A stretch of DNA of 48,488 nucleotides from a virus (IMGVR_UViG_2597490154_000001), one strand, 5' to 3'. Positions 9,680 through 33,388 are shown, counted from the stretch's first letter. Made by a program: numbers and translations. The notes: generated from the letters alone by a model not told the origin.

Positions 9680-10213
9680 ATGATGCACTTAAAAAATATT
9701 ACTGCTGGCAACCCTAAAACAAAAGAACAATACCAGCTAACGAAACAATTTAACATCAAATGGCTTTATACAGAGGATGGGAAAAACTGGTATGAGGAAC
9801 AAAAGAACTTTCAGCCTGATACGTTGAAAATGGTCTATGACCACAACAACGTTATTATTTGTATTGAAAAGGATGTTTCAGCAATTAATCCAGAAGGCGC
9901 AAGCGTCGTTGAGGTTCCTGATATTACAGCAAATCGCCGGGCTGATATTTCGGGTAAATGGATGTTCAAAGATGGCGTAGTGATAAAGCGAACTTATACC
10001 GAGGAGGAACAGAGGCAGCAGGCAGAGAATGAAAAGCAAAGCCTGTTGCAACTTGTCAGGGATAAAACCCAGCTATGGGACTCACAGCTACGGCTGGGCA
10101 TCATTTCCGACGAGAATAAACAAAAATTAACCGAGTGGATGCTCTATGCGCAGAAAGTCGAATCTACAGACACCTCCAGCCTGCCAGTAACATTTCCCGA
10201 ACAACCTGAATGA
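9680..10213 (+). CDS. tail fibre assembly protein (Tfa/U-like)
   Basis: 177-aa ORF immediately after fibre gene; N-terminus MMHLKNI shared with inverted paralogue. Confidence 0.8.
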
Positions 10214-10241: not shown

Positions 10242-10769
10242 TTATTCAGGCTTTTGTGGCCATTCAGGATTTGCCGTATCCACACGGCTGACCAGAACAC
10301 TGTAGCGTTCCCATGCTTCCAGTCGTGTGCGTTCCTCGTCTGTTGCCATATTCAGCCTGACAGCGCGTTCCAGCGGCTGGATGACTGATTCAGCTTCGGA
10401 AAACAATGCGGCCTTTTGTGATTCGGCTTGTTGTTGCTGTTCGTCTGCCGTATAAATCCGTTTAACTACAGCTCCATCCTTAAACATCCACTTTCCTGAA
10501 TCATCGGCACGACGATTGGCTGTTATATCTGGAATCTCAACGACACTAAAGCCTTCGGGATTAAGCGTTGAGGCATCTTTGGTTATGGCAACAATAATAT
10601 TATTTTCGTCGTATACAATCTTTATGGTGTCGTCCTGAAAGTTATTTACTTCCTCATACCAGTTTTTACCGTCCTCAGAGTAAAGCCAGACAACTCCGTG
10701 TTTCTTTGTTAATTCATACTGTTCCAGTGTTTTAGCGTTACCCGCTTTTATGTTCTTTAAGTGCATCAT
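10242..10769 (-). CDS. alternative tail fibre assembly protein (U'-like)
   Basis: 175-aa ORF on - strand, paralogue of 9680-10213, inside invertible segment. Confidence 0.8.
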
Positions 10770-10770
10770 A

Positions 10771-11790
10771 TTAAACGCTCGCTACATTATACCAGGTGCC
10801 ATTTATATACTTTTGAACGGGTCTGTAATAAACGCCCGCTATATTATCGGCAGAATTGGACCCTGTATCCTGAACATTAATACCAGTCAATACATGACCT
10901 GACGGGCACTGGAAATTCCATGTTTGCCAGTTATTCACGCCATAATATCGCTGTGAACCAAGTCGAACATCTTTCACATAACGGGAATCAAAGTTACCGT
11001 AATCTGAGGGATTAACACGCCCTGTAATATTTATGGTTTTATTACTTTGAATACTGCCGGAGACAAAGCGCATAACATGGACGTTATTAGCATAAACATC
11101 CAGATACCCGTCGCCATTTTGTTTAAATCCCGTGTCATTATCACCCAAAACAATCGAGTTACCGCCAAGAGCACTGGATGTTCCGATGCCCAGTGCACCA
11201 TTCAATTGACCGCCAGATAATGACAACGCCCCAACCTCAGCAGCAGTCGGTTTAATGTGCGAACTGTAAATTACATATACAGTTCCATCTGTCAGGCCTG
11301 TTGGTTTATTCGCTGTATAAGTTGGTGATGTATGAATCGTTACGCTGGCGTTACTGGTATAATCCCACTGAATATTAACACCTGTGGCGTAATTACCTAT
11401 TTCAACATAAACATCATAGGTATTACCGGATGTATTCACCCATGCAAAATTAGTAAATCCAACCGATGTCCGTCGCCATAATGCACCAGTAATACCTTTT
11501 GGATTCCCATTTCCGGCACGCAGAACCAGCTCAGAGATGCCTGCTTGATGCGAGGAGCCAACGTTATACCCTGCGCCACCAATCAGGCTTATGTAAACCA
11601 CGGAACTGGCTTGTGGCATTGTTACAGTTGCCAGTTTGAACCATCCAGCACCACCACTAAAAGACATGGTTGTTGAATTTGTTGTGCCGATATTACGCAG
11701 GAATAGTTTTTTATCGGGAATATCTGCGCCGTTCTGTTTTTTCTGTAATGCGCCAGAAGCCTGATTTACCGTTTCCTGTAAACCGAGGTT
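10771..11790 (-). CDS. silent alternative tail fibre C-terminal cassette (Sv'-like), expressed only after inversion
   Basis: Reverse frame open from crossover site to stop at 10771 with no stops; ORF track shows internal Met at 11667; shares junction peptide with expressed fibre. Confidence 0.75.
11717..11788. repeat. right arm of inverted repeat bounding the invertible segment
   Basis: Reverse complement of 8723-8794. Confidence 0.9.
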
Positions 11791-11798
11791 TTTGCGAA
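11773..11798. other. gix/hix-like recombination crossover site (right)
   Basis: TTCCTGTAAACC-GA-GGTTTTTGCGAA, two 12-bp half sites around a 2-bp core. Confidence 0.7.
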
Positions 11799-15730: not shown

Positions 15731-15851
15731 TGCTCATGGAATTATATAATTATAGATTTATATAAAAAGTGCTTTACAGGTGGGACAATATTTCCTAGTG
15801 TTATACCCGAAACCGAGCGATACCCGCCCTGGTTAAACCGGAGATAACCCG
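15731..15851 (+). promoter_or_regulatory. copy 1 of a triplicated promoter/leader cassette (AT-rich motif, TTTACA -35, conserved ~50-nt leader, SD)
   Basis: Near-identical to 25433-25544 and 32064-32174; ends at the ATG of the downstream gene. Confidence 0.6.
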
Positions 15852-17377: not shown

Positions 17378-18520
17378 TTATGGTCTGCTTTTCTGTGCCA
17401 GCTTATCAGCACATGTTTTTATCAGATCCTGTAGTGTCCTGGCTGGCAGGTTTGCATCCAGTACGCTGAGTATGCTGTTGTGATCAGCCTGGTCGATTAC
17501 TTTGCCTGTCGGTGGTAGTAGCTTGAGCTGAGGATTCAGGTTTTCGTCAAAACTGATAAGTGCTCTGGCGTTTCTGAGCAGATCAAGAAGTAAGGCTGAT
17601 ATCACATCATCTTTAGTCATTGTTGGTAGATTTAGTGCCGCTTTAGTTTTCTCCGTCGCCTTGTCAAACTCTTTGATTAGTGTCTTGCGGTAGTTTGGTT
17701 CCGTTAATAGCCGATGATGTTCTGTTGCCGTTCGGATAATCTTTGTTTCCTGATACAGTCGGTTGTATAGCATTCGCTCGTATTCTGCCTTTAACACGCT
17801 GCTGATAGCGTTAAAGGCTTCAATGTAGGCCAGCTTGATATCCTTCACGCCTGGACCGTCGATACTTTCCATGAGCAAGGTAAATCCGTCTTTTGTCATG
17901 CGATAGATTGTTATTTCGCGGTCGCTTCCTTCCAGCGGTCGTTGTTCTTTAAAGAAGTGACGCGCCGCAGCCGTGCGAGGAATGCGTAACGCATCGATGG
18001 CCATAACGATGGAATTGTTTGTGGTGCTGAATGCTTGGGCAACATCGGCTGAGGTTGTGAGTGGCTCGTTGTTGCACACCTTAACGTAATACATTGGTTT
18101 AGCGTTGAGCGTATCGACAACCTCACGAGCATTGTTTGGTGAGACGGTTACGGTCGCGGCCGTTTGCGCGTTCTGGTTGAAGTAGCAGTCTTCCAGCCGT
18201 TCGAATACATCCCATGCCTGATCGGTTTCGAGCATTTTAGCGTGACGTGCAGCCCCGCGTTCGGTCCAGAGGATGAGCTTTCTAACGTTATTCGCGATGG
18301 TTTGAAAATCTCTTAAAGAGATTTTCAAACTTTGGAGATCTGTACCTTTTACAACTATGAAATGTTTTCCTTCTGTAAACCGGGACTTATTACGGTGGTG
18401 ATTTCTGTGAAGACATTCGACGCTACAGCCATATAGTTTGGCAAGCAGCTCCGTGGTGATAACGGGGAGCTGGTTATGCAGGATAGGCTGTAGGGTGTTA
18501 ACGGTCGGAAGCGTTTTCAT
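17378..18520 (-). CDS. phage antirepressor (KilA-N/ORF6N-type N-terminus with Ant-like C-terminal part)
   Basis: 380-aa ORF; N-terminal region resembles antirepressor N-domains; start overlaps the upstream small ORF (ATGA). Confidence 0.6.
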   Translation of the reverse strand: MKTLPTVNTLQPILHNQLPVITTELLAKLYGCSVECLHRNHHRNKSRFTEGKHFIVVKGTDLQSLKISLRDFQTIANNVRKLILWTERGAARHAKMLETDQAWDVFERLEDCYFNQNAQTAATVTVSPNNAREVVDTLNAKPMYYVKVCNNEPLTTSADVAQAFSTTNNSIVMAIDALRIPRTAAARHFFKEQRPLEGSDREITIYRMTKDGFTLLMESIDGPGVKDIKLAYIEAFNAISSVLKAEYERMLYNRLYQETKIIRTATEHHRLLTEPNYRKTLIKEFDKATEKTKAALNLPTMTKDDVISALLLDLLRNARALISFDENLNPQLKLLPPTGKVIDQADHNSILSVLDANLPARTLQDLIKTCADKLAQKSRP

Positions 18521-18708
18521 TTTGCACCTCCCATAACTACTTTGGTTACGAGGGAGATTTTTGCGACAGAAACAGCGTTATCGTTGCTGGCGATGCGCAT
18601 AGCTTCGCGCTCGATGATTTCAGCCAGGCGGAATTTATCGGCGTATGAGGCTTTCTTGAGAAGGATCTTTACGAGGTTGACGTAATAGTCATGGGGTAGG
18701 TTTGTCAT
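18517..18708 (-). CDS. small protein translationally coupled to the antirepressor (in the position P1 icd occupies)
   Basis: 63-aa ORF, 4-nt overlap with ant start; preceded by antisense-RNA-like hairpins. Confidence 0.4.
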   Translation of the reverse strand: MTNLPHDYYVNLVKILLKKASYADKFRLAEIIEREAMRIASNDNAVSVAKISLVTKVVMGGAK

Positions 18709-18865
18709 TGTGATGATTCCCTTAAAGGTTAAGGATACTCACCACCGTCAGGTTCCAATCATTGGGTGGTGAGACGTGCAGGGTTGGAACTACCGGACAC
18801 AATGACGAACCGGCGAGTCTTACGACTCCCCCGCACGCCCCACCATAATTTGGGTGTAGCAGTGC

Positions 18866-18960
18866 TTTACGCATAAAAAAACCGCTAACGCGGTATGCGC
18901 CATTGTGTCTACGGGGTTCCAATCCCGACCGTAGATTTTGCTACGGCTAGGAAAGTGTCC
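18866..18960 (-). ncRNA. candidate c4-like antisense RNA with its own terminator
   Basis: Hairpin 18911-18934 displays GGTTCCAATC in the loop; - strand terminator (ACCGCG..CGCGGT then T7) at 18866-18890; complementary elements at 18750-18760 and 18783-18790 in the icd-like leader. Confidence 0.35.
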
Positions 18961-19868: not shown

Positions 19869-20252
19869 TGCTGATCGGATTCGCGGTCCTTTCAGCATAA
19901 CGTCGTTGTACTAATACAACCACGCAAGCACAAACAGCAACTACATTCTTACCCAACTGAGGTGAATAGTCCACTATTCATATAAAAAAATTTAGCTCAT
20001 TAGCTCATGCAAAATGAAGGTTTTTAACTTATTTACGTGTAATCTTATGTAATAAAAGCGTTTTTTATTCCTTCATTATGAAGGGTATGACGTGTAATAT
20101 GGCTTGGGGCCTTTCCGCCGATTCGCACCCGGGCACTGACTTTCAGGAAAGGATTATCCACTTGCCGTACCACGCAGGCACAAACAGCGTGCTTGCTCTC
20201 GCGTCATTTTCGTCGGTGGGGATGCCGTGAAACGGCCTGTAAGGGCCACACA

Positions 20253-20375
20253 ATGAAAAAATACTACATGTGTATTTTTATCGTTGTTACTGGGGCTTTG
20301 TTTACGCCACATGGAGAGGGTTGGAAGATTACTGATAACGCTCTGAATGTGACGATAAACATTAGCAGCAAGTAG
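20253..20375 (+). CDS. small hydrophobic protein (40 aa), function unknown
   Basis: MKKYYMCIFIVVTGALF...; SD-like AAGGG 8 nt upstream; own terminator immediately downstream. Confidence 0.35.
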   Translation: MKKYYMCIFIVVTGALFTPHGEGWKITDNALNVTINISSK

Positions 20376-20380
20376 CGATT

Positions 20381-20404
20381 AGGCCCCTTCGGGGGCCTTT
20401 TTTA
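20381..20404 (+). terminator. rho-independent terminator
   Basis: AGGCCCCTTCGGGGGCCT followed by TTTTT. Confidence 0.65.
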
Positions 20405-20625: not shown

Positions 20626-20874
20626 TTACTTCTGGTTGTATTGAGCCTTGAGTAACTCAAAAGATTTTGTCAGCACTTCTTTCAATGACATATCCATTGA
20701 GCTGGCGAACGTTTTGTACTCGCGTTTAAATTCAGGGTCGACGTTAAACGCCATTTGTGCCCCACCTGATTTGGTTCTGGCTGGCGTTTCAGTCGGGTCG
20801 AAAACCTGCGGTTGTTCGATCGATGGCGGTACGCCTTTGCTGTTCTTCTTTGGTGGTTTTGATGGTGCGGCCAT
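20626..20874 (-). CDS. ParG-like small partition protein (basic, probable ribbon-helix-helix)
   Basis: 82-aa ORF immediately downstream of the ParA-like ATPase. Confidence 0.5.
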   Translation of the reverse strand: MAAPSKPPKKNSKGVPPSIEQPQVFDPTETPARTKSGGAQMAFNVDPEFKREYKTFASSMDMSLKEVLTKSFELLKAQYNQK

Positions 20875-20888
20875 GTGTATCCTCTCTT

Positions 20889-20921
20889 ATATAAATCTAT
20901 AAAACTATAATTATATATTAC
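20889..20921. repeat. AT-rich motif site (TATAAATCTATAA / ATAATTATATA family) between the two par genes
   Basis: Member of a dispersed motif family with at least 8 sites in the window. Confidence 0.6.
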
Positions 20922-21586
20922 GCGGCAGTAGTCAGAGCCTCAAGCTGGTTGATAATCCCCTGAATAACGTCGTCTGCTTTTTTGCGTGGCGCAACGTATG
21001 AGCACTCAATGAGGCTTAAGCCTTTATCCTGAGCTTTGCTCAGAGCTGGCTTGTGGGGAATGTACTTATCGACAACAAAGTATGGCGTATTAGCCAGGTA
21101 CTCTTGGGCTTCAATATAGTCAGCTTCGTTTTCAGCCGCGCCGGAAAACACCATGCAAATTTTCTTGATTGGTACACCCTTTTTAACGATGCCGTGAGCT
21201 GTGTTAACGGTGGTTTCCAGGTCATCGGTAGAGAATCTGGTTGGCAAAATAACCATATCCAGAAATTCAGAGAGCTTCGGTACTGATTCAGATGCGTAGG
21301 CACCGCCATCAACGATAACCAGGTCGTATACTTCTGATTCGATGATTTTCTGGACTTGTGATGGCGTGCCGCACGGCTGCGCCGCGATTGCAGGTTCGAT
21401 ATTGTTGGCCATTCTGCGTTGTACCCAACGCGTTACCGTTCCGTTAAGCACATCCATATCGATCAGGCATACATTCCAGCCAGCCTTTGCATAAGCAACT
21501 GCTAAAGCACGAGCAATGGTTGATTTGGTTACGCCGCCTTTTCCGTTGAAAATACCTACAGATATAGTCATTTGTCGAGACTCCAT
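20918..21586 (-). CDS. ParA/ParF-type partition ATPase (small Walker-type)
   Basis: 222-aa ORF with deviant Walker A GKGGVTKST near the N-terminus. Confidence 0.85.
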   Translation of the reverse strand: MESRQMTISVGIFNGKGGVTKSTIARALAVAYAKAGWNVCLIDMDVLNGTVTRWVQRRMANNIEPAIAAQPCGTPSQVQKIIESEVYDLVIVDGGAYASESVPKLSEFLDMVILPTRFSTDDLETTVNTAHGIVKKGVPIKKICMVFSGAAENEADYIEAQEYLANTPYFVVDKYIPHKPALSKAQDKGLSLIECSYVAPRKKADDVIQGIINQLEALTTAA

Positions 21587-21593
21587 GTGTTTG

Positions 21594-21699
21594 ATTATAT
21601 AATTCTATAAATCTATATTTATAGAATGAGGTAAGCATAACCAACTTTTTGGCGGATGAAAAGTGTTTTATATAATTATATAAATCTATAATCATATAA
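21594..21699. repeat. two AT-rich motif sites upstream of the partition operon (candidate centromere/operator)
   Basis: TATATAATTCTATAAATCTATA at 21594-21627 and TATATAATTATATAAATCTATAA at 21669-21699. Confidence 0.55.
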
Positions 21700-21721: not shown

Positions 21722-22096
21722 TCAGAGGTCAGCTATCGTTGATATCAGTTGATTTGCTAGCTGTCGCTGTTTACGTGAGAGGGTTAGAGCAGCTTCTGAG
21801 CGGTCGCTAAGAGGGGTGTTTTCATCGAGAATCATGAGGCATACAGAAATAATAGCCCTGTTATATGCCATCAATGGCTGGCACAGCTTCGATATCGCTG
21901 GCACATCGTATTGTAAGGCCGTTTTGAGGCAGACTTTTTGTTCTGATGCCAGATGAAGGATAGATTCTATCCAGTCGATATCTTTCTCATTATCAATGAG
22001 TTGGCATAACATACACTCAATCGCTATGTTCAACGCTTGGATTTCGATTCCAGCAGTGATCAGAGTTTCGTTTTTATTGGCTGTATGTAATTCCAT
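21722..22096 (-). CDS. hypothetical protein encoded immediately downstream of the CI-like repressor gene
   Basis: 124-aa ORF; operator-like palindrome lies between it and cI. Confidence 0.45.
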   Translation of the reverse strand: MELHTANKNETLITAGIEIQALNIAIECMLCQLIDNEKDIDWIESILHLASEQKVCLKTALQYDVPAISKLCQPLMAYNRAIISVCLMILDENTPLSDRSEAALTLSRKQRQLANQLISTIADL

Positions 22097-22130: not shown

Positions 22131-22147
22131 AACCACAAATCGTGGTT
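22131..22147. promoter_or_regulatory. operator-like palindrome AACCACAAATCGTGGTT, also a hairpin
   Basis: Perfect ACCAC-N5-GTGGT palindrome followed by T7. Confidence 0.5.
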
Positions 22148-22188: not shown

Positions 22189-22851
22189 TCATAACCAGTT
22201 GACAACACTAACTACGCGGCCAAGAACTTTATAACGCTTAAATTCCTCGTTATTCAGATGCTTAGTGTTCATTTCAGCATCCCTTTCGGTTGACAGCATA
22301 ACAGCATTGTCACCCGGTATGACTCTACAGTGCCTCAAAACAACCAGGCCATTTCTGTCTTCAAGGGCATAGATCCCCTCATGAATCTCTGTATCGTCTG
22401 TATTAATCAGGACTTGGGAGCCAGGGGATATTGTTGGTGACATTAGCTTTAGCTCATCGTTGCTCTGGAGAACAGACAGAGACGATGGGTTGATGTTCTT
22501 GCTTCGTAGAATCTCCTGTTCTATCGCCAGCACTGGCTTTTCTCCGGCGTGCGATGCTATGTCATTTTTTATAGCTACAAGCCCAGGAATAACAGGTGCG
22601 TTAGTATTCTGGGGTGGGAACGGGTTATCTGTTAAGCACGCGATATAAGGCGCTGATGCTTTCAGGGCGTGCGCGATTTTCTTGATGGCAGGTATAGATG
22701 GTTGTCTTAATCCGGCCTCATAGTTCTGCAAGGTGCTTAAGCCTATTCCAGTGACTTGCTGGAGATCTCCGGCAGTCATGCCGGATTGTTTCCGTAGAGT
22801 CTGAATGCGCAGACCTATTTCTTTCTTGATGTTCTCGTCGTTGCTTTTCAT
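22189..22851 (-). CDS. CI-like prophage repressor (HTH plus S24 LexA-like peptidase domain)
   Basis: 220-aa ORF; N-terminal HTH; C-terminal Ser (LMSPTISPG) and Lys (RYKVLGRVV) motifs typical of autocleaving repressors. Confidence 0.8.
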   Translation of the reverse strand: MKSNDENIKKEIGLRIQTLRKQSGMTAGDLQQVTGIGLSTLQNYEAGLRQPSIPAIKKIAHALKASAPYIACLTDNPFPPQNTNAPVIPGLVAIKNDIASHAGEKPVLAIEQEILRSKNINPSSLSVLQSNDELKLMSPTISPGSQVLINTDDTEIHEGIYALEDRNGLVVLRHCRVIPGDNAVMLSTERDAEMNTKHLNNEEFKRYKVLGRVVSVVNWL

Positions 22852-22887
22852 TTCTCATCAATCGTGAATGGGGGGGTTATTTATACA

Positions 22888-23008
22888 TTACCACATTTAG
22901 TGGTTTTCACACGGTAAGACGAGAGGTAGACCACAAATAGAAGGTTATTTTTTGTTTCCCCATTGAAAAACTCACGATTTGTGGTTTTAATACCACATAT
23001 CGTGGTTT
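22888..23008. promoter_or_regulatory. divergent cI/cro-type promoter-operator region
   Basis: Palindromes ACCACATTTAGTGGTT (22890-22905) and ACCACATATCGTGGTT (22992-23007), plus two degenerate copies. Confidence 0.6.
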
Positions 23009-23024
23009 AACTGGAGTTAGTTAA

Positions 23025-23519
23025 ATGACCTTTCAGGAGTGGGTTGATGAAAATGGAGGCCAAATTGGTGTTGCCAGAAAGTTTGGCTTTACGTCATCAC
23101 TGATTGGTGCCTGGTATCGCTTCGAGAGATTCCCTCGTGCGGATAACCTGACGCTGCTGGTGGCGTATTCGGAAGGCCGGATTAATGTCCAGCAATGGGC
23201 GGCAGATTTTGCCGAACGTCAGCGCCAGCGTAGCGATGGCACATCGGTTCGGCAGAACAAGATCAAAGGGAATCTCCCTGTTAACTGCTTATCAAGGTTG
23301 AAAGCGGTTTTCTCTGAGCTGGGAATGCCTGCGGAGCATTGCAATCTACGCGGTCCGCGATTCATTGCTCGCTGGAAACACTCACACGTAACCGTTTCAG
23401 AGGTTCGTGATGCGATTGCCATGCTGGAGTTTAAGAATAAAGATTCCAGCGATATCGAGCTGATTCATAAGGAGATTAGCAACGCTCGGCGTTCAGCACT
23501 TGGGAGGCTTGAGGAATGA
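23025..23519 (+). CDS. Cro-like HTH regulator, divergent from cI
   Basis: 164-aa ORF; position and N-terminal HTH-like segment. Confidence 0.45.
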   Translation: MTFQEWVDENGGQIGVARKFGFTSSLIGAWYRFERFPRADNLTLLVAYSEGRINVQQWAADFAERQRQRSDGTSVRQNKIKGNLPVNCLSRLKAVFSELGMPAEHCNLRGPRFIARWKHSHVTVSEVRDAIAMLEFKNKDSSDIELIHKEISNARRSALGRLEE

Positions 23520-24031
23520 TGATTCTGGCCTTCTTTGGTGATAATCACCAGATTCAATCGCAGGTGGTGCACTACCTTGATCAAACGATTAAAGGATTTG
23601 TTATCGATCATATTGATAACGATAGTAAACGTCTATCTGTAGAGCAGAAAATTGGAGGTGTGCAGCGACTGGTTGCCAGCCGTAACAGACGTGACACCGT
23701 AACAGTAGTCACGGGGATCACGGAGGTCATGGAGTACCAGATGTTGCTGCATCGTGGAGCTGTTTTCTGCGTTCTTCCTGGCATTCTGCCAGCAATTCTT
23801 GCTCGTGGTTTTGTCCCTATTGATGAGTCGTTTTTATATGTAACTCCAAGCCGTTCCCTTCTGGATTCGGAGGCGAAGCGTCGCATTTATATGCTGCCGG
23901 ACGAGGCATTTTCTGAATGTTACCGCCGTGAAATGAGGTTGGGTAAACGAGATGTGTCTGTTTCTCGTGATGGCAGGTTTTTAAGCAGCCGCACGGTGAA
24001 AAGCACCAGGAATGACGGGGGCCATCAATGA
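23516..24031 (+). CDS. hypothetical protein
   Basis: 171-aa ORF, coupled to neighbours. Confidence 0.4.
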   Translation: MMILAFFGDNHQIQSQVVHYLDQTIKGFVIDHIDNDSKRLSVEQKIGGVQRLVASRNRRDTVTVVTGITEVMEYQMLLHRGAVFCVLPGILPAILARGFVPIDESFLYVTPSRSLLDSEAKRRIYMLPDEAFSECYRREMRLGKRDVSVSRDGRFLSSRTVKSTRNDGGHQ

Positions 24032-24261
24032 GTGGTTATGTTCGCGGTGCTGCGATGCATTGCCAGAATCCCCAATTCTGGCGCTTTCTGACCAGTAAAA
24101 CAGGGAAGAACATTTCAAACAGTTCTGAGGCCTCTGTGATTCTGCGTGAGTTTTGCGGGATCTCATCCCGTAAAGAGCTGGCAAAGAACTACGCGGCCAG
24201 AAGCATGTATGTCCAGTTAATTAACGAGTTCAACCTCTTTATCAATGGTAAGGGGCGCTGA
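24028..24261 (+). CDS. hypothetical protein
   Basis: 77-aa ORF with overlapping start/stop. Confidence 0.3.
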   Translation: MSGYVRGAAMHCQNPQFWRFLTSKTGKNISNSSEASVILREFCGISSRKELAKNYAARSMYVQLINEFNLFINGKGR

Positions 24262-24665
24262 TGAACGGACGTACACCAACGAAGAAAGAGAAACTTTATA
24301 TACAAGCGGTGCTCACTCACGTGGGTTGCATAGCTTGCATTATTGATGGCCGTGAAATTGAGAATCCAGAGCTGTGGACGGAGCTACATCACGATCCTGA
24401 TTACGGCAGCGTTGATGAGAATTGCCACTTCCATAGCTTTGGGTTGTGCGCACCACATCATCGCGGTGTTGTGCCTGGTGGTGGGCGCGTGCCTCCGCAT
24501 ATTGCCGTTCGTCACCCTCCCCTGAGTAATTGTGCTCGCTTTGTTGAGCGTTATGGCACCGATGAATTTTTGTGTGCGCAGACGTGGGAGCTGTTGCCGC
24601 AGTCAGTTAAAGACGAAATTGGGTTTGATCTTAGTCTTGGTGAAGTACCAGGGGATACCAAATGA
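24261..24665 (+). CDS. Cys/His-rich putative zinc-binding protein (possible nuclease or regulator)
   Basis: 134-aa ORF with CxxC ... CxFH ... CxPHH spacing. Confidence 0.35.
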   Translation: MNGRTPTKKEKLYIQAVLTHVGCIACIIDGREIENPELWTELHHDPDYGSVDENCHFHSFGLCAPHHRGVVPGGGRVPPHIAVRHPPLSNCARFVERYGTDEFLCAQTWELLPQSVKDEIGFDLSLGEVPGDTK

Positions 24666-24994
24666 GATATACCGGCTTTCGCAAACCAGCGACCAGGAAA
24701 AGCAAATACGGCAATAAAAAAACTGTTGTCGATGATATCGCTTTTGATAGCAAAAAAGAGGCTGATTACTACTGCGAACTGAAGCTACTGAGAAAAGCTG
24801 GCCGCGTTGTGACGTTTCTTATGCAGGTGCCTTTTCATCTGCCTGGTGGTGTCGTTTATAAACTTGATTTCATGGTGTTTTATGACGATGGGTCGATTGA
24901 TTGTGTCGACACTAAAGGTGTGCGAACAGACGTCTACATCATGAAGAAAAAGCAGGTAGAGGCGCTTTATCCCGTCACGATACGGGAGATCTGA
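24662..24994 (+). CDS. hypothetical early-region protein (DUF1064-like by recollection)
   Basis: 110-aa ORF with KSKYGNKKT motif. Confidence 0.4.
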   Translation: MRYTGFRKPATRKSKYGNKKTVVDDIAFDSKKEADYYCELKLLRKAGRVVTFLMQVPFHLPGGVVYKLDFMVFYDDGSIDCVDTKGVRTDVYIMKKKQVEALYPVTIREI

Positions 24995-24997
24995 ACA

Positions 24998-25375
24998 GTG
25001 AGACGCGATCTGGATAGCTTGTTTGAGCTATGGGCGCTGTGGGTGCGCAATGGCTGCAACGCCCGTAGCGGTTTCGCGTCGATGTTAGAAATGATGATGG
25101 TTACGCGTTGCCAGTTTACCGGAGGGGGCGGCGCACCAAATGACTCACTGGAAACCAGTATCGAGGGAGCGGTGACGGCCCTCACGGTAGTTGATGAGAC
25201 TGCGGCGCTGGTTGTCCGAATTGAATACGGGGCGTGGGAGATTCGGGGCCTCGACATAAATGCACCGCATATTGATAAAGCCCACGCCCTTTCTCTTAGT
25301 CTCAGACAGTATCGCCGGAAGCTGGCAAAAGCCAGGGCGTATGTTGTCGACTATTTGAAAAAGCGAAGAGAGTGA
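24998..25375 (+). CDS. candidate Q-like late antitermination protein
   Basis: 125-aa ORF just upstream of a repeated promoter cassette; LFELWALW motif resembles the small Q-like family as I recall it; weak call. Confidence 0.35.
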   Translation: MRRDLDSLFELWALWVRNGCNARSGFASMLEMMMVTRCQFTGGGGAPNDSLETSIEGAVTALTVVDETAALVVRIEYGAWEIRGLDINAPHIDKAHALSLSLRQYRRKLAKARAYVVDYLKKRRE

Positions 25376-25432
25376 AAGTGTCATTTTGAGCTGTTTTGAT
25401 GGTGTGTAGACATCGGGAACATCGAAAATCTA

Positions 25433-25544
25433 TAAATATATAATTATAGATTTATATAAAAAGTGCTTTACAGGTGGGAAAAAATTTCCTAAGGTTATAC
25501 CCGAAACCGAGCGATACCCGCCCTGGTTAAACCGGAGAAATCTG
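25433..25544 (+). promoter_or_regulatory. copy 2 of the triplicated promoter/leader cassette (candidate late promoter)
   Basis: Identical over ~112 bp to 32064-32174; lies directly after the Q-like gene. Confidence 0.6.
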
Positions 25545-26612
25545 ATGAATAAACAAGTAATTATTTCTGACTGGATCAACAACCCTAACAGCCTGTTAAG
25601 CACTGATACTGGCTACCTATTACGCCATGTTAATGGTCGTATGGTCAAAAGCGATGAGCACGAAACCTTTTTCTTTGTTGAAGACGATGGGCGTATCTAT
25701 GAGGATGGTTACTCTTATGAAGCCCAAACTGGTTGTATCCCTGCGGAGCTGGTGGACGTAACAGAAGATCTGCGTAAAGCATGGCTTGAACAGCAGCAGC
25801 GCGGAGATGATTACGTAAACACCTATCAGGAACGCCAGAACGCGCGTCTTGCCCGATATATTGCTCGTGCAGAAAAAGCCAGAAAAGAAGGTGCGGTAGC
25901 GCATAAGCGAGCGCATGACCTGTTGGATGTGATCCCGTTAGGCCAGCCGATTTTAGTTGACCATTATAGCGCGAAAGGCCATCGCCGCCGTTTGTCTAAA
26001 GCTGATGCGTTATTCAGAAAAGCGTTTGTTGAATGCGAAAGTAAAGCATCACACTACGAGAGCAAAGCCGCAGGTGTTGGTCGTAATGGAATTTCGTCTG
26101 ATGATCCTGATGCGCTATTTAAGTTGCTTCGTAAGCTGCAAGGCTGCATGAAGTCACACGTCAAAATGAAGGCCGCAAATAAGGCCATTCGCAAATACAA
26201 AAAAGACCAATTACAGCAGCTTTCTGCATTAATCGATCTCAGGTTTACAGAAAGCGAAGCCAAAGAGTTACTGGCCGGAGATTTCTGTGGGCGCATCGGA
26301 TTCCCTTCATACGCACTGAGCAACAATAACGCCGAGATCAAACGACTACAGAGCCGTATTAAGGAGCTTGAATCGGTCAAGTCTGTAACAGGAGCACAGC
26401 GCGAAGAATACGACGACTTTTCTATGAAGATAGATCCAGAGGATAACCGCATCCTGTTTTATTTCCCTGGCAAACCAGAGGCAAACATTCGTTCGCTGCT
26501 TAAATCACGCGCCTTTAAGTGGAGTCCAACCCGTAATGCATGGGTTCGCAAGATTACTCCAAATGCCCTGGCTGATGCCCGATATCTGAAAGAATCGCTA
26601 TTGAAAGCCTGA
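25545..26612 (+). CDS. hypothetical protein (355 aa, coiled-coil rich)
   Basis: Driven by cassette copy 2; no confident family assignment. Confidence 0.5.
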   Translation: MNKQVIISDWINNPNSLLSTDTGYLLRHVNGRMVKSDEHETFFFVEDDGRIYEDGYSYEAQTGCIPAELVDVTEDLRKAWLEQQQRGDDYVNTYQERQNARLARYIARAEKARKEGAVAHKRAHDLLDVIPLGQPILVDHYSAKGHRRRLSKADALFRKAFVECESKASHYESKAAGVGRNGISSDDPDALFKLLRKLQGCMKSHVKMKAANKAIRKYKKDQLQQLSALIDLRFTESEAKELLAGDFCGRIGFPSYALSNNNAEIKRLQSRIKELESVKSVTGAQREEYDDFSMKIDPEDNRILFYFPGKPEANIRSLLKSRAFKWSPTRNAWVRKITPNALADARYLKESLLKA

Positions 26613-26644
26613 CAGTAAGCCTACGGCGGGATGTCTCCCGCCGT

Positions 26645-26677
26645 ATATAGAATTATATATTTATATAAATGTATAAG
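26645..26677. repeat. AT-rich motif site
   Basis: TATATAGAATTATATATTTATATAAATGTATAA. Confidence 0.5.
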
Positions 26678-26689
26678 GACGCCTCGACA

Positions 26690-26971
26690 ATGAAACGCAA
26701 AATTATTAACCCCCAAGATGTGATTAATTTCCTGACCGATCACCCATGTTCAAAAGTGGACGTAATCGCGGAGCACATTGGTGTGTCGCAGAACTCTATG
26801 CGTTGCAGACTGAGAAGCATGGTTGCCGAAGGACAGATAACAACCAGGAAAATAAATGGTTGCCTGTACTACTCCGCTAAACCGGAATTGCCATTTGGCA
26901 TGAATCCTAACTCCATGTTGTTTAACACCTTATTAGCCAAAGTTAAGCCGTTGAGAGGGGCTGTGGCATGA
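26690..26971 (+). CDS. small putative winged-helix DNA-binding protein
   Basis: SD AAGGA before ATG 26690; ORF track start 26669 lacks an SD. Confidence 0.4.
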   Translation: MKRKIINPQDVINFLTDHPCSKVDVIAEHIGVSQNSMRCRLRSMVAEGQITTRKINGCLYYSAKPELPFGMNPNSMLFNTLLAKVKPLRGAVA

Positions 26972-27333
26972 GCATCAAAACCCATACCGGAATAATCATC
27001 ACCATTGATGGTGAGAAAAAAGTGAAGTTACGCGAAACGCCGACAACCTGGTGTGTTGGTCCGAAAGAAACATATCGCAAGGAAGATGGCCGTCGTTGTG
27101 GCGCACCACTTTCCCGCCGTCGCCTCCTTTTGAGCACGATAAAACCTATCGGGCAGGTTGAGCAACCAACGACTTTGGTAACGAAGATTTCAGACAAGAG
27201 TCTGGCAAACCTGATCGCTGATGCGGACAAGGTGCTGGAGCGAAACACCCCCGTTGCAGATGAGGAATGGTGGCAGGATTTCCGAGCCGCAATGCTAGAG
27301 CTTCAGGAACGTCGTCGGGAGGAGTTGAAGTGA
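26968..27333 (+). CDS. hypothetical protein
   Basis: 121-aa ORF. Confidence 0.4.
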   Translation: MSIKTHTGIIITIDGEKKVKLRETPTTWCVGPKETYRKEDGRRCGAPLSRRRLLLSTIKPIGQVEQPTTLVTKISDKSLANLIADADKVLERNTPVADEEWWQDFRAAMLELQERRREELK

Positions 27334-27590
27334 GTGGATCAAATTGTCGAATTAATGGCAATCGAATAGAGCCGTGTGCTGCATTGGCAAAGTCTCTTGA
27401 GCACGATGCTGAATGCTCAGTAAGAAAAGGCTTACTGCTATACAAAATCTGGAATGAGAGTTTAACCCGTGGACCTGATTTGGTGATGTTGCGTTCCGGT
27501 GAGTTTTCTAAATCACCTATTCGAGTCTCATTTTGCCCATTCTGTGGTGAAAGTCTGAAAACGTGGGAAGCGGAGGCAACCAGTGAATAA
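27330..27590 (+). CDS. small zinc-ribbon protein
   Basis: GTG start overlapping the upstream stop; C-terminal CPFCGE motif. Confidence 0.3.
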   Translation: MSGSNCRINGNRIEPCAALAKSLEHDAECSVRKGLLLYKIWNESLTRGPDLVMLRSGEFSKSPIRVSFCPFCGESLKTWEAEATSE

Positions 27591-28227
27591 CCGCTTTTAC
27601 ATGATGTGCTTGCGTGAAACTGTGGGTAATAACGCCTCATTCCATTGCCATAACGGCAATGGTTACAGTTCTGATATCGATCGCGCTCATATTTACACGC
27701 TGGAAGAAGCCCAAAAAGCCTGGAATTGTGGGCGAGATATCGATCAGCCTGTTTGTGCCGATAGTGTGGATGCAATGGCTGTGTGGCACGTTGATTGCCA
27801 GTACATCCCTACAGAAAGCCTGATTGAGTCAGATTGCACTGAGTATGTGGCCTACAAAAAAGGTAGCTGGAACGGCAACGATGTTTACTGGCTTCAACAC
27901 GGTGGATTGCCAACAGATGACTTCAGTAAAGCGACCATCTTTAGCTTCGCCAACAAAAACGAACCAGGAATAGTTTGGTTGCCATTTTCCATTGCTGATG
28001 CAGCAAAGCGCCGGACGTTCAATATCAATAACTTTAACCGCAGAACAATGGTTCAGGGCGCAGGTTTGGTCATGCCTGACTGGTTGAAAGAGCAGAACAG
28101 AAGAAAGAAGTCGCGAAGCGGGAAGGTGCGTTGGAATTGTCCGCATTGCGGAAAAATAACCTGGCAGTACAGCCCATATGATTTTGAAGGCTGTCGTGAT
28201 TACAACTGTGAAGGATGGCGAGAATGA
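27583..28227 (+). CDS. cysteine-rich hypothetical protein with C-terminal zinc-ribbon
   Basis: 214-aa ORF; CPHCGK ... C..C near the C-terminus. Confidence 0.45.
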   Translation: MNNRFYMMCLRETVGNNASFHCHNGNGYSSDIDRAHIYTLEEAQKAWNCGRDIDQPVCADSVDAMAVWHVDCQYIPTESLIESDCTEYVAYKKGSWNGNDVYWLQHGGLPTDDFSKATIFSFANKNEPGIVWLPFSIADAAKRRTFNINNFNRRTMVQGAGLVMPDWLKEQNRRKKSRSGKVRWNCPHCGKITWQYSPYDFEGCRDYNCEGWRE

Positions 28228-28937
28228 CAATTGACTATCAGGTACTGCGTGAGGCGGCAGAAAAGGCAACACCAGACGAATGGGTCGCATTTATTTCGAC
28301 GGATACTGGTACTTATGCGGTGCACACGCCCGGTGATGAACGATGTGAAGACGTTATCAAATGGACCGGCTTTGATGGACAGAAAAATGCAGAGAACAAC
28401 GCTCGTTATGTTGCCGCGTTCAACCCAAAGGTTGCACTGGAGCTGCTTGGTGAAATTAAGCGCCTGGAGGACACAAATATTGATGCTATGTGTCGAATTG
28501 CAGAGCTTGAGACTAATCTCGCGGCGCTGGCGGCGGAGAATGAACTGGCTCGTAAGGCAGTTCAGGCATTCTGCGATGTTGTTGGCGACAACACCGAGGT
28601 TATCGCTGAGGAGGTTGGGCGAGATGGCGTTCTGGTTATTTTGGAGGCCATGAAGGCAACAGGAAATATTCCAGCCACCGATGCTTTTCTGGCTGAAATT
28701 CGTGCGGAAGCACGCAACGAGGGGATTAACTATACCGCCAGCCGTCTTGCTGCTGCGTTCAATCACGGATTTATCAATAAGTCTTTGCGTGAAGTTTTCG
28801 ACGTTACACGCATGATTTTGTCAGCGAAAGAAGAGTTGGCTAATGAAGCGCATCCGATTGATGGCCTGTCTGGTGAATATGCAGAGAAATCCCTTGAAGA
28901 ATGGGCGGAACAGATTCGTAAAGGAGGCGACAAGTGA
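28215..28937 (+). CDS. Ead/Ea22-like protein
   Basis: 240-aa ORF; N-terminal region resembles lambdoid Ea22-like proteins by recollection; coiled-coil middle. Confidence 0.4.
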   Translation: MARMTIDYQVLREAAEKATPDEWVAFISTDTGTYAVHTPGDERCEDVIKWTGFDGQKNAENNARYVAAFNPKVALELLGEIKRLEDTNIDAMCRIAELETNLAALAAENELARKAVQAFCDVVGDNTEVIAEEVGRDGVLVILEAMKATGNIPATDAFLAEIRAEARNEGINYTASRLAAAFNHGFINKSLREVFDVTRMILSAKEELANEAHPIDGLSGEYAEKSLEEWAEQIRKGGDK

Positions 28938-29125
28938 GCAATTTAGCGAGGCTACGAGCAGTATTTAGATATTCAGAGCGGGTAATGAAGCACATACAAC
29001 CGAAAACATGGCAGAAACTGGACTCTATGGGAGTTAAGTTGGAGAAGATTACTCAACTTAAGCAGTGGCATATCGGCGAATATTATGGAAGTCCTGGTCG
29101 GGATGTTCGGTTGGTCAAAAGTTAA
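28934..29125 (+). CDS. hypothetical protein
   Basis: 63-aa ORF. Confidence 0.3.
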   Translation: MSNLARLRAVFRYSERVMKHIQPKTWQKLDSMGVKLEKITQLKQWHIGEYYGSPGRDVRLVKS

Positions 29126-29269
29126 GTATTGTTTTTTTATCGATCGATTAACCACATTGTGAAGGTTTTTTTATGGGGAAACCTTGTTTTAGGTGGTAAC
29201 TGGGTGTAGTGTTTCATTTAACGTAGTAAAACTGCGTTAAGCGATTACCGCGTAATTTGTTGCTTTATG

Positions 29270-29302
29270 AAGCCCTGCCTTTTTCGGCGGGGCTTTTTTT
29301 TT
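29270..29302 (+). terminator. strong rho-independent terminator immediately upstream of the lysis genes (tR'-like position)
   Basis: AAGCCCTGCC ... GGCGGGGCTT followed by T9. Confidence 0.75.
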
Positions 29303-29315
29303 AACGAGGATTTCA

Positions 29316-29711
29316 ATGTCAGCAGAACCAATTTCCGGTACGGCCGTTGCTGCTGGTGGCCTGATGGGTGCCAGCGTTTTTGGTATTGCAACTGGTATTG
29401 ATTACGGCGTTGTATTCGGGGCATTTGCTGGCGCTGTTTTCTATGTTGCTACAGCGGTGAATATTAGCCGTCTCAAGCTGATTGGCTATTTCTTTACATC
29501 GTTCATTGTTGGAGTGATTGGAGCGCCGTTAGTTGGCTCATTTCTTGCCAAATGGACCAGCTACAACGATCGTCCTCTTGATGCGCTTGGTGCGGTTATT
29601 GTGGCTGCATTGACAATTAAAATCCTCACGTTCGTAAACAGCCAGGATCTCGGTAGCATCTTTGGAATGCTTTCCCGCTTACGTGGAGGGGGTTCAAATG
29701 GTAAGCAGTGA
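29316..29711 (+). CDS. holin-like membrane protein
   Basis: 131-aa ORF with hydrophobic segments, SD GAGGA; first gene of the lysis cassette. Confidence 0.55.
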   Translation: MSAEPISGTAVAAGGLMGASVFGIATGIDYGVVFGAFAGAVFYVATAVNISRLKLIGYFFTSFIVGVIGAPLVGSFLAKWTSYNDRPLDALGAVIVAALTIKILTFVNSQDLGSIFGMLSRLRGGGSNGKQ

Positions 29712-30922: not shown

Positions 30923-30953
30923 TATATATTTCTATAATTATATAAATATATAG
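30920..30953. repeat. AT-rich motif site upstream of the tRNA
   Basis: AATATATATTTCTATAATTATATAAATATATAG. Confidence 0.5.
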
Positions 30954-31090
30954 TTACAACATTCTATGCGCTTTTCTCATTAGCGCACGCATCAACCATG
31001 TTTGTCTGATATGCCGCCGCGCCCAAAAATCCTGAATTTATTGGCTGGGATTTTCGTGCGCGGCGCCACACCAGACAAACAAATCAAATA

Positions 31091-31166
31091 TGGCCCCTTA
31101 GCTCAGTGGTTAGAGCAGGCGACTCATAATCGCACGGTCATCGGTTCAAGTCCGGTAGGGGCCACC
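31091..31166 (+). tRNA. tRNA with CAU anticodon, most like tRNA-Ile2 (lysidine) rather than initiator tRNA-Met
   Basis: Folded by hand: 7-bp acceptor stem GGCCCCT/AGGGGCC, D-stem GCTC/GAGC, anticodon loop CTCATAA, T-loop GGTTCAAGTCC, encoded CCA; G1-C72 pair excludes initiator. Confidence 0.9.
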
Positions 31167-31475: not shown

Positions 31476-32063
31476 ATGGAGGCAATTGCATTGTTTAATC
31501 TGATTTATGCAGATCCCCCCTGGGAATACAAAGATAAGTGTAAGGATGGGAATCGTGGAGCTGGTTTTAAGTATCCAACGATGAAAGCTGAGGATATTGC
31601 TCGTATTCCTGTCTGGCAGCTTGCTAATCCTGAATCGTGTTTGTTGGCCATGTGGTGGGTTCCGACTCAGCCAGAAGAAGCGTTGCTGGTGGTGAAAGCA
31701 TGGGGATTCAGGCTTATGACCATGAAGGGCTTCACATGGAACAAATGTGGTAGCCGACAACCAGATAAGCTGGTGATGGGGATGGGGCATATGACTCGTG
31801 CAAACAGTGAAGATTGCTTGTTTGCGGTAAAAGGCAAATTGCCGACCCGCCTTGATGCGGGGATCATTCAGTCGTTTACATCGCCTCGTCTGGAGCATTC
31901 TCGGAAGCCTGATGTGGTTCGTGACAAGCTGGTAAGGCTGTTAGGTGATGTTCCTCGTATTGAGCTGTTTGCTCGCGGTGATTTACCTGATGGTTGGCAT
32001 GGCTGGGGCAACCAGTGCAATGGAGGTATCCAGTTGCATGATGCTCTCTGGCAAGTGGCATAG
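31476..32063 (+). CDS. MT-A70 family N6-adenine DNA methyltransferase (orphan)
   Basis: 195-aa ORF with catalytic DPPW motif (IYADPPWEY) near the N-terminus. Confidence 0.8.
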   Translation: MEAIALFNLIYADPPWEYKDKCKDGNRGAGFKYPTMKAEDIARIPVWQLANPESCLLAMWWVPTQPEEALLVVKAWGFRLMTMKGFTWNKCGSRQPDKLVMGMGHMTRANSEDCLFAVKGKLPTRLDAGIIQSFTSPRLEHSRKPDVVRDKLVRLLGDVPRIELFARGDLPDGWHGWGNQCNGGIQLHDALWQVA

Positions 32064-32174
32064 AATTATATAATTATAGATTTATATAAAAAGTGCTTTA
32101 CAGGTGGGAAAAAATTTCCTAAGGTTATACCCGAAACCGAGCGATACCCGCCCTGGTTAAACCGGAGAAATCTG
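32064..32174 (+). promoter_or_regulatory. copy 3 of the triplicated promoter/leader cassette
   Basis: Identical to copy 2 over ~112 bp. Confidence 0.6.
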
Positions 32175-32641: not shown

Positions 32642-32663
32642 ACCGTAACGATAACGAACAACG

Positions 32664-32690
32664 AGCCTCGGCAATTGCCGGGGCTTTTTT
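32664..32690 (+). terminator. rho-independent terminator
   Basis: AGCCTCGGCAATTGCCGGGGCT followed by T6. Confidence 0.65.
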
Positions 32691-33360: not shown

Positions 33361-33388
33361 CAGCCTCGCGTGTCGCGGGGCTTTTATT
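33361..33388 (+). terminator. rho-independent terminator
   Basis: CAGCCTCGCGTGTCGCGGGGCT followed by TTTTATTTT. Confidence 0.6.

Follow-up and report, generated by a model that had tools for sequence, protein, structure and literature searches.

The viral contig IMGVR_UViG_2597490154_000001 (48,488 nucleotides (nt); hereinafter, the window) carries, at positions 25545-29125, a run of seven genes on the plus strand that are located between the second copy of a repeated cassette and a strong intrinsic terminator preceding the holin gene. The sequence is identical over the query to that of pATCC25922_4 (NZ_CP117232.1), a complete, circular, 48,488-bp phage-plasmid of Escherichia coli ATCC 25922 (Seattle 1946). 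The RefSeq annotation is that of a phage-plasmid, in which genes for RepA, a RelE/ParE toxin-antitoxin pair, a small ParA protein and an XRE-type repressor accompany a lysis cassette (two holins, a GH108 endolysin and a spanin) and genes for terminase, portal, capsid, a contractile tail and a tail-fiber invertase. A preliminary description of the window had presented the interval as accessory cargo in the position where lambdoid phages carry morons such as toxin genes; the seven genes and both flanking features named there are indeed present.

Each of the seven products matches a PHROG family with an E-value of 5e-32 or lower and, therefore, these are genes rather than chance open reading frames (ORFs). 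The first gene (25545-26612) encodes a 355-amino acid (aa) protein that had been described as a coiled-coil protein and is found to contain a full-length DUF3560 domain (PF12083; residues 94-216, 108.3 bits vs a gathering score of 27.2, E-value 3.6e-31), its structural model including long helical hairpins. The next gene (26690-26971) encodes a 93-aa basic protein (pI 9.8; WP_000823235.1, identical in most relatives of this element). The winged-helix label previously given to this protein is poorly reflected in Pfam, where the matches to HTH_24, FaeA and TrmB are all below the cutoff, but agrees well with its match to phrog_1687 ('MarR family', 5e-32); the start at 26690, compared with 26669 in the earlier reading, is favored by a ribosome-binding site (RBS) and by the conservation of the upstream sequence. 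It is followed by the gene for a 121-aa basic protein (26968-27333; phrog_7520, 3e-83), the two halves of which match separate PHROGs and which has no match in Pfam or the PDB. The fourth gene (27330-27590; GTG start in RefSeq, mechanical ORF from 27267) encodes an 86-aa Cys-containing homolog of Upf87.4 of phage P7 (phrog_4030, 5e-38), and the fifth (27583-28227) encodes a 214-aa zinc-ribbon protein homologous to P7 Upf87.6 and to hkaG.

The previous identification of both of these Cys-rich proteins as zinc ribbons is well supported for the 214-aa protein and weak for the 86-aa one, which contains one CxxC motif and three other cysteines and shows zinc-ribbon resemblances below the threshold only. 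In the 214-aa protein, a globular domain of about 165 aa without an assigned fold is joined by a basic linker to a C-terminal zinc ribbon, in which C186, C189 and C204 are invariant and C209 nearly invariant among 40 homologs; it has a confident AlphaFold model and no relative in the PDB, and no fused domains were found when longer members of the family were scanned. The sixth gene (28224-28937) encodes a 237-aa acidic protein whose Ead/Ea22-like label is borne out by the match to PF13935 (residues 5-180, 74 bits vs a Pfam gathering score of 27, E-value 2.4e-20), with no sequence match to any PDB chain, including the solved Ea22 of phage lambda. The last gene (28934-29125), which is annotated in relatives and absent from the RefSeq record, encodes a very basic 63-aa protein (pI 10.3; phrog_9594, 7.5e-48). 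Sequence searches of the PDB with six of the seven products and profile searches with the two largest families (DUF3560 and the 214-aa protein) detected nothing significant, and an NCBIfam scan yielded nothing usable; the earlier statement that none of the products has a confident function stands after profile, structure and context searches.

The six genes at 26690-29125 overlap by 4 or 8 nt at ATGA or GTGA junctions, and a Shine-Dalgarno sequence was seen for each of them. Hence the genes from the winged-helix protein through the 63-aa protein form a single translationally coupled unit, in which the overlaps leave no room for promoters or terminators of individual genes. All seven products are hydrophilic and lack membrane segments, with a top 19-residue hydropathy of 0.86 compared to 2.02 for the holin used as a control, and accordingly are predicted to be soluble cytoplasmic proteins.

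The close relatives of this element, 46-52 kb in size, are plasmids of E. coli, E. albertii and E. fergusonii, and three further ones are the Yersinia pestis phages vB_YpM_39, 41 and 44; a more distant relative, about 70% identical, resides in Klebsiella aerogenes. pSLy3 represents a separate group of 114-kb phage-plasmids, and a literature search did not identify a paper on the 48-kb phage-plasmid family. A blastn comparison of positions 24900-29400 with 11 Escherichia and Yersinia-phage relatives separates three parts of the interval at sharp breakpoints (27334 and 28953). The segment 24900-27334, which includes the genes for the DUF3560, winged-helix and 121-aa proteins, is 95.6-99.3% identical in all 11 relatives. 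Homology stops at the stop codon of the 121-aa gene (27334-27335) in nine of these and continues to 27568 in the other two; it returns at 28953, or sooner through pieces of the Ea22-like gene, which is itself a mosaic (28228-28542 and 28671-28941 match relatives at 70-92%). These breakpoints delimit an exchangeable, hypervariable slot, 27335-28952, that in the window holds the genes for the 86-aa, 214-aa and Ea22-like proteins. At the conserved 3' end lie the larger part of the 63-aa ORF, a non-coding sequence of 190 nt and the terminator; conservation of the 63-aa gene from about codon 7 on marks the right boundary of the slot. The K. aerogenes relative retains the DUF3560 and winged-helix genes, and the genes that follow differ.

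All 11 relatives contain other gene sets in the slot, and it is empty in none of them, suggesting that this is a hot spot of gene replacement rather than of insertion; the segment 25545-27333, being conserved, does not look like an insert either. Clustering of the slot ORFs from the 12 elements yielded 25 clusters. An ASCH-like gene (203-233 aa), from the family of P7 Upf86.8, is present in 10 of the 11 relatives at the place of the 214-aa gene, which among the 12 elements is found only in that from ATCC 25922. The 86-aa gene is shared with two relatives, the Ea22-like gene with nine and the 63-aa gene with ten; further clusters include DUF7446, DUF1382 and DUF4752 proteins, small zinc-ribbon proteins and unknowns. 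Upf86.8 was also examined as a possible relative of the DUF3560 protein and rejected; it is a member of the ASCH-like slot family. Thus, the label of accessory cargo applies to 27335-28952, but not to the first 1.8 kb of the interval, which is a conserved backbone.

Taken together, these observations lead us to an interpretation to which we give about an even chance, namely that an accessory operon in two parts, a backbone part and a recombination slot, occupies this interval of a temperate, myovirus-type phage-plasmid. The first part (25545-27333) belongs to the backbone of the family and encodes the DUF3560 protein, a winged-helix DNA-binding protein and the 121-aa basic protein. In the second part (27335-28952), whole genes are swapped with lambdoid prophages and with phage-plasmids of the P1/P7 type, the breakpoints falling at gene boundaries, and the unit is closed by the conserved 63-aa gene, a non-coding element and the strong terminator.

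The genes in the slot point to the source of the exchanged material. At the DNA level, the 86-aa and 214-aa genes, together with the beginning of the Ea22-like gene, show 92-98% identity to segments of P7, P1-like elements, Salmonella phage SJ46, Stx2c phages and other coliphages. In P7, upf87.4, upf87.6 and the start of upf88.3 are homologous (93% DNA identity) and collinear with 27330-28260; these genes belong to the 'hea' operon, where the ASCH-like upf86.8, upf87.4, upf87.6 and the Ea22-like upf88.3 follow one another in this order. Unlike the arrangement in the window, where no repressor operator was found, the hea operon is annotated behind a predicted C1 operator, that is, as early and repressor-controlled, and has no DUF3560 gene in front. 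Homologs of the 214-aa protein are encoded in the early-left operon of a Yersinia prophage, between the repressor side and the integrase, among early genes of an Acinetobacter prophage, and beside umuDC-like genes on a Pantoea plasmid, without a constant partner gene across these contexts. The slot genes thus belong to the gene pool of lambdoid early-left (exo-xis) or 'ea' regions and the P7 hea operon. Like the lambda exo-xis or b-region genes (ea22, ea8.5, orf60a, orf61, orf63 and orf73), they are small, tightly packed and variable between relatives, include an Ead/Ea22 family member (with DUF1382 and DUF4752 genes in the slots of the relatives), and encode apparent intracellular modulators rather than structural proteins. 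In contrast to the lambda genes, which belong to the PL early-left operon next to int and xis, those in the window follow a repeated cassette and immediately precede the lysis genes of a non-integrating phage-plasmid. Ea22 of lambda is among the earliest transcribed genes and favors lysogeny (PMC7093339, PMC10834534), and the Ea22-like protein could similarly modulate the lysis-lysogeny decision.

These affinities bear directly on the possibility that the interval contains classical morons, that is, toxin, virulence, exclusion or anti-phage defense genes that benefit the host, as stx does in lambdoid phages. The location between a possible Q-like gene with a late promoter and the lysis genes, the hypervariability of the 1.6 kb, and a weak match of the winged-helix protein to phrog_142 ('Ren-like exclusion', E-value 0.002) are compatible with this possibility. 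The site shares with the Q/PR'-lysis moron site of Stx and other lambdoid phages its position relative to the possible Q-like gene, promoter, terminator and holin, as well as a possible regulatory RNA at the end of the cargo (here 29142-29301). However, in Stx phages, tR' directly follows PR' and the cargo lies behind it, and hence is Q-dependent, whereas here the cargo precedes the strong terminator, contains no toxin, and consists of translationally coupled rather than self-contained genes. No match to PADLOC-DB 2.0 at the default cutoff of 0.001 was found for any of the seven products, the sole weak match being that of about 50 residues of the winged-helix protein to SoFic (E-value 0.0063), and no toxin or virulence domain was detected in these products with Pfam or NCBIfam; nor do the slots of the 11 relatives contain a toxin, virulence, resistance or recognized defense gene. 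There is no promoter or strong terminator of their own on the plus strand within 26972-29125, and the GC content of the genes (0.43-0.51) does not differ from that of the surrounding sequence (0.445-0.50 per kb across 25-32 kb). Because the products are hydrophilic and lack signal peptides and membrane segments, they are not secreted toxins or membrane exclusion proteins. Finally, the slot genes have their relatives in lambdoid early-left regions and the C1-controlled hea operon rather than at sites of the Stx type. What these genes share with toxin morons is therefore position only, and the moron explanation appears very improbable to us; the exchangeable 1.6 kb contains ordinary, early-type accessory genes of temperate coliphages rather than toxin-type morons.

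The DUF3560 protein consists of a beta-rich N-terminal domain specific to the family (residues 1-92) and a core of about 265 aa (93-355). The core is highly conserved across Enterobacterales, Desulfovibrio and Pseudomonas and contains the invariant motifs IPxGQPIL..H.S, GISSDDP, MK..N..IR and FKWSP.R..W, the first, second and fourth of which were noted to be retained here. The AlphaFold (AF2) model, with a mean confidence (pLDDT) of 91, combines the helical hairpins with a small alpha/beta domain, and no PDB relative was found by sequence or by fold. The gene is conserved in all relatives compared, including that from K. aerogenes. Beyond this family, the DUF3560 core was detected in 414 of 72,556 plasmids, 229 of these conjugative, compared to 12 of 50,697 phage records, three of which come from this phage-plasmid family. 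In PLSDB, 67 records contain a DUF3560 core at 60% identity or higher, which puts the members of the family there at several dozen. Elsewhere, the core is fused to the single-stranded DNA-binding ArdC-N domain or to LPD29 or LPD30; on a MOBP/MPF_T plasmid, a DUF3560-core protein annotated 'ArdC' is encoded near ssb and korA, and in Dickeya, the DUF3560 gene adjoins an LPD29 gene and KorA/KorB. A DUF3560 gene of pO157 is located among antirestriction, DUF1380 and ssb genes and is upregulated 5-fold under ciprofloxacin (PMC11125564), and proteins with ArdC-N and LPD domains have been proposed to function soon after the entry of DNA (PMC5512222). This association with conjugative-plasmid genes, the sole lead to a function, suggests that the DUF3560 protein could be an establishment or anti-restriction factor. 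The resemblance to ArdC-type or 'polyvalent protein' genes of conjugative plasmids lies in the core, which is the one fused there to ArdC-N or LPD29/LPD30; the differences are the distinct beta-rich N-terminal domain and the location on a phage-plasmid without conjugation genes. The literature search identified no functional study of DUF3560 and no report of anti-restriction activity for any DUF3560 protein.

The conservation of the 5' half could also mean that it encodes core phage functions, with the DUF3560 protein acting as a primase or replication factor and the winged-helix protein as a regulator of late genes. Consistent with this, both genes are kept even in the K. aerogenes relative, the C-terminal half of the DUF3560 protein matches phrog_19458 ('primase', 1.8e-36), and upstream of the winged-helix gene lies a separate array that is strongly conserved. 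However, the 'primase' label lacks domain support: no Pfam match at E <= 0.01 was found for the FP_Toutatis 'primase', in which the homologous part is present, and the DUF3560 protein shows no match to Toprim/DnaG, AEP or zinc-binding domains in Pfam or NCBIfam and, as stated above, has a helical-hairpin model with no PDB relative; the primase label was dropped. Moreover, the element replicates with a plasmid RepA, and DUF3560 is found mostly on conjugative plasmids. We consider the assignment of core functions improbable; in the two-part operon that we favor, the most probable targets of the products are DNA or the machinery of the host, in the course of takeover or establishment.

The expression of the operon probably depends on the cassette at its 5' end (copy 2; 25431-25557, plus strand), which consists of an AT-rich array of 8-bp repeats, a conserved stretch of about 95 nt, and the RBS and ATG of the DUF3560 gene, and which is the putative promoter and leader. 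The cassette belongs to a set of three 127-nt direct repeats (starting at 15737, 25431 and 32061) that are 83-100% identical, the identity running from the array to the ATG; at its end, each provides the RBS and the ATG for the leading gene of an operon. The copy at 15737 heads a gene pair encoding a 126-aa protein and a helix-turn-helix (HTH) protein, with a terminator-like hairpin, annotated on the opposite strand, just past the pair; copy 3 (32061) heads an operon that continues into the genes for a ParB-like protein, terminase and structural proteins. The cassette is about 88% conserved in the K. aerogenes relative, next to genes that are about 70% identical. It is not structured as RNA (z = -0.6) and matches no Rfam family; a structured leader like the put site of HK022 was ruled out by this z-score. 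Candidate operators of the repressor (ACCACA-N3-YGTGGT) are present at 22132-22146, 22890-22904 and 22992-23006 and nowhere else in the element; their absence from the cassettes indicates that these are not directly controlled by the CI-like repressor. Two of the copies are found where the XRE-type repressor gene and the early operon diverge, and one lies just 3' of the repressor gene, before the next minus-strand gene (21722-22096). Because the cassette is common to the structural operon, co-regulation with the late genes is likely. The preliminary description had set cargo apart from genes with ordinary conserved functions that are strictly co-regulated with the structural genes; the cassette shared with the packaging and structural operon points to the second of these properties.

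Intrinsic terminators stand between the cassettes and the late genes. The one before the holin (29269-29296, plus strand) has an 11-bp stem with seven G-C pairs and a run of nine T (-24 kcal/mol, z = -5.5), and two more strong terminators are located on the plus strand 0.5 and 1.2 kb after cassette 3 (32663-32686 and 33362-33382). The latter two, inside the cassette-3 operon, argue for processive antitermination of late transcription. Given the shared cassette and the strong terminators in both units, the simplest model is joint switch-on with terminator read-through. Transcription would most likely start at cassette copy 2, and perhaps again at the array ahead of the winged-helix gene. After induction, a factor encoded in the early operon would turn on all cassettes together and let the polymerase pass the terminators into the lysis and structural genes, a Q-like design. 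The region of the divergent repressor gene and early operon (22189-25375) ends with genes for a Ref-type nuclease and a DUF1064 protein and a 125-aa ORF (24998-25375, plus strand) directly upstream of cassette 2. The latter represents a small unnamed family of 31 clusters and is the candidate regulator of the cassettes, with a faint resemblance to Q: its hhalign alignment to the N-terminus of QuuD covers just 38 columns (E-value 0.042), Sigma70_r4_2 is matched by 2 of 17 family members below the threshold (0.064), and the NCBIfam match is to PA0613_fam (2.5e-4, 21 bits vs a cutoff of 100), for which no functional study was found in the literature. What this analysis demonstrates is the gene complement with its conservation pattern and overlaps, the mosaic boundaries, the common cassette and the terminators; in the scheme built on these, we infer the timing of expression and the identity of the regulator, and the same goes for the biochemical role of each product.

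Expression of the seven genes in the carrier state hinges on whether the cassette promoters are activated or constitutive. If they are constitutive, similarly to lambda PR', with the terminators confining the transcripts, the seven genes and the non-coding element would be expressed continuously in the carrier as a lysogenic-conversion compartment, and antitermination would be required to reach the lysis genes beyond the terminator. The promoter-proximal genes do end at a strong terminator right before the holin, cassette 3 shows the same layout, with two small genes followed by the terminator at 32663, and related AT-rich arrays precede parA, which is necessarily expressed in the plasmid state. 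Precedent comes from Stx phages, in which PR' is always active and is terminated in lysogeny, yielding the small RNA (sRNA) StxS (PMC7547250), and from prophages of enterohemorrhagic E. coli (EHEC), which encode sRNAs at the moron site downstream of PR' (PMC4104026). Conversely, inside the cassette a simple sigma-70 consensus scan detected no promoter; the arrays may just as well be repressor sites by which these promoters are silenced, and in both lambda and P7 the slot genes count among the early lytic genes. Constitutive activity would also be wasteful for a cassette that heads the structural operon as well; lambda does express constitutively at such a promoter, with its 6S RNA. On balance, we regard constitutive expression as rather unlikely.

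The AT-rich arrays themselves extend beyond the cassettes. Arrays of about four tandem 8-bp units (TATAKAWT) account for 11 matches in the element compared to 0 expected. They are present in the three cassettes (15744-15763, 25430-25457 and 32068-32087), upstream of parA (21597-21624 and 21678-21697), between parA and the gene for an 82-aa protein (20889-20916), upstream of the winged-helix gene (26647-26666, plus strand) and after the spanin genes (30924-30943). The sequence from the 26647 array through the ATG of the winged-helix gene is nearly 100% conserved, including in the K. aerogenes relative, and this array, which can be aligned to those of the cassettes and those near parA, is a candidate internal promoter or operator. 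It is preceded, after the stop codon of the DUF3560 gene, by a GC-rich hairpin (26623-26645, plus strand; 10-bp stem, -19.5 kcal/mol, z = -3.45), whose stem is retained and loop altered in K. aerogenes; because no T tract follows, this is not a canonical terminator, and it may be an attenuator or an RNA-end element. Separately, a 42-nt inverted repeat that derives from the AT-rich arrays (25417-25458 vs 30923-30964, 76% complementary) encloses the accessory and lysis modules.

The arrays have the appearance of a promoter or operator element common to these sites, to which a partition-linked repressor may bind. ParG and omega-type repressors bind arrays of short repeats. The gene for the small ParA (217 aa; 20918-21571, minus strand) is followed by that for the 82-aa protein (20626-20874, minus strand), which had no match in Pfam or PDB searches and on inspection shows a basic, disordered N-terminus and a C-terminal strand-helix-helix pattern, QMAFNVDPEFKREYKTFASSMDMSLKEVLTKSFELL, resembling a ribbon-helix-helix (RHH) domain. 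This ParA partner recalls the centromere-binding repressors of the ParG and omega type and is a candidate for binding the 8-bp arrays.

The conserved non-coding element at the end of the operon (29142-29301, plus strand), which includes the terminator, contains a G/U-rich stretch resembling R1 of the sRNA GcvB. The match to the GcvB covariance model (RF00022) is full-length and below the threshold (31.8 bits vs a gathering score of 42), as is that of the orthologous K. aerogenes site (28.3 bits), with the model positions for the second half (R2) missing in these matches. Conservation reaches about 95% in the G/U-rich core and the hairpin behind it, inside flanks that are about 70% identical, and the element is confined to this phage-plasmid family. 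It is thus a candidate sRNA or an RNA derived from the 3' untranslated region; at the equivalent site of EHEC prophages, the regulatory RNAs AgvB and StxS are known (PMC4104026, PMC7547250).

These features can be assembled into yet another scenario, in which the interval is a promoter-proximal compartment, delimited by the terminator and transcribed in the plasmid (lysogenic) state, with the promoters governed through their arrays by the RHH-like ParA partner, a conserved GcvB-like Hfq sRNA at the end of the transcript retuning amino-acid transport of the host, and DUF3560 acting as an establishment or anti-restriction factor taken from conjugative plasmids. We judge this scenario clearly improbable; if it is true, the logic of plasmid leading regions, control by a partition protein and an sRNA moron would be merged in one unit before the lysis genes.

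Several observations weigh against the interpretation of the interval as a two-part accessory operon that is switched on together with the late genes. The hairpin and array that follow the DUF3560 gene may set the last six genes apart as a second transcription unit. Judging by its sequence, the cassette may equally well be constitutive as repressed or activated, and the link between the 125-aa ORF and Q is below the threshold, with PF06530 (Phage_antitermQ) matched by 1 of 17 family members (E-value 0.074). The slot genes are members of early operons in lambdoid phages and P7, which fits poorly with a 'late' promoter. The proposed role of the DUF3560 protein is an argument from guilt by association, its fold offers no functional clue, and its N-terminal domain has no detectable similarity to ArdC-N.

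Several other features of the element were noted in the course of this analysis. On the minus strand, the C4 antisense RNA (18762-18850) and isrK (18875-18947), both scoring above the Rfam gathering score, lie upstream of an antirepressor-like gene with an ORF6N domain (17378-18520), the entire region spanning 17378-18947; thus, a P1/P7-type immI module coexists with a lambda-like CI-type repressor in a 48-kb element. A full-length match to ryfA RNA (20105-20403, plus strand; 134.7 bits vs a gathering score of 80) is located between an HTH gene and the partition genes. The tail-fiber gene contains three 132-nt tandem repeats, and the repeats of the tail-fiber region have the coordinates 7845-8319 and 9761-10026 with 10423-10688. 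An 83-nt inverted repeat (8719-8801 with 11710-11792, 93% complementary) flanks oppositely oriented tail-fiber assembly genes beside a recombinase gene; the enclosed segment is predicted to be an invertible host-range segment of the Gin/Cin type. Between the lysis cassette and cassette 3, there are genes for tRNA-Ile (31092-31164, plus strand) and an MT-A70-family methyltransferase (31476-32063, plus strand).

ATCC 25922 is among the most widely used reference strains of E. coli, and at the 25545-29125 site of its phage-plasmid, this strain has no recognizable toxin or defense cargo. The division of the interval into backbone and exchangeable parts guides the choice of deletions by experimenters. 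DUF3560, present on 414 plasmids, most of them conjugative, and the 214-aa zinc-ribbon family, with about 900 representatives, are both targets in the search for new host-takeover or anti-restriction activities, each having a confident structural model and neither a solved relative. If the side observations on the arrays, the partition genes and the non-coding element are confirmed, the phage-plasmid family would provide a link between plasmid partition, late-gene control and host riboregulation.

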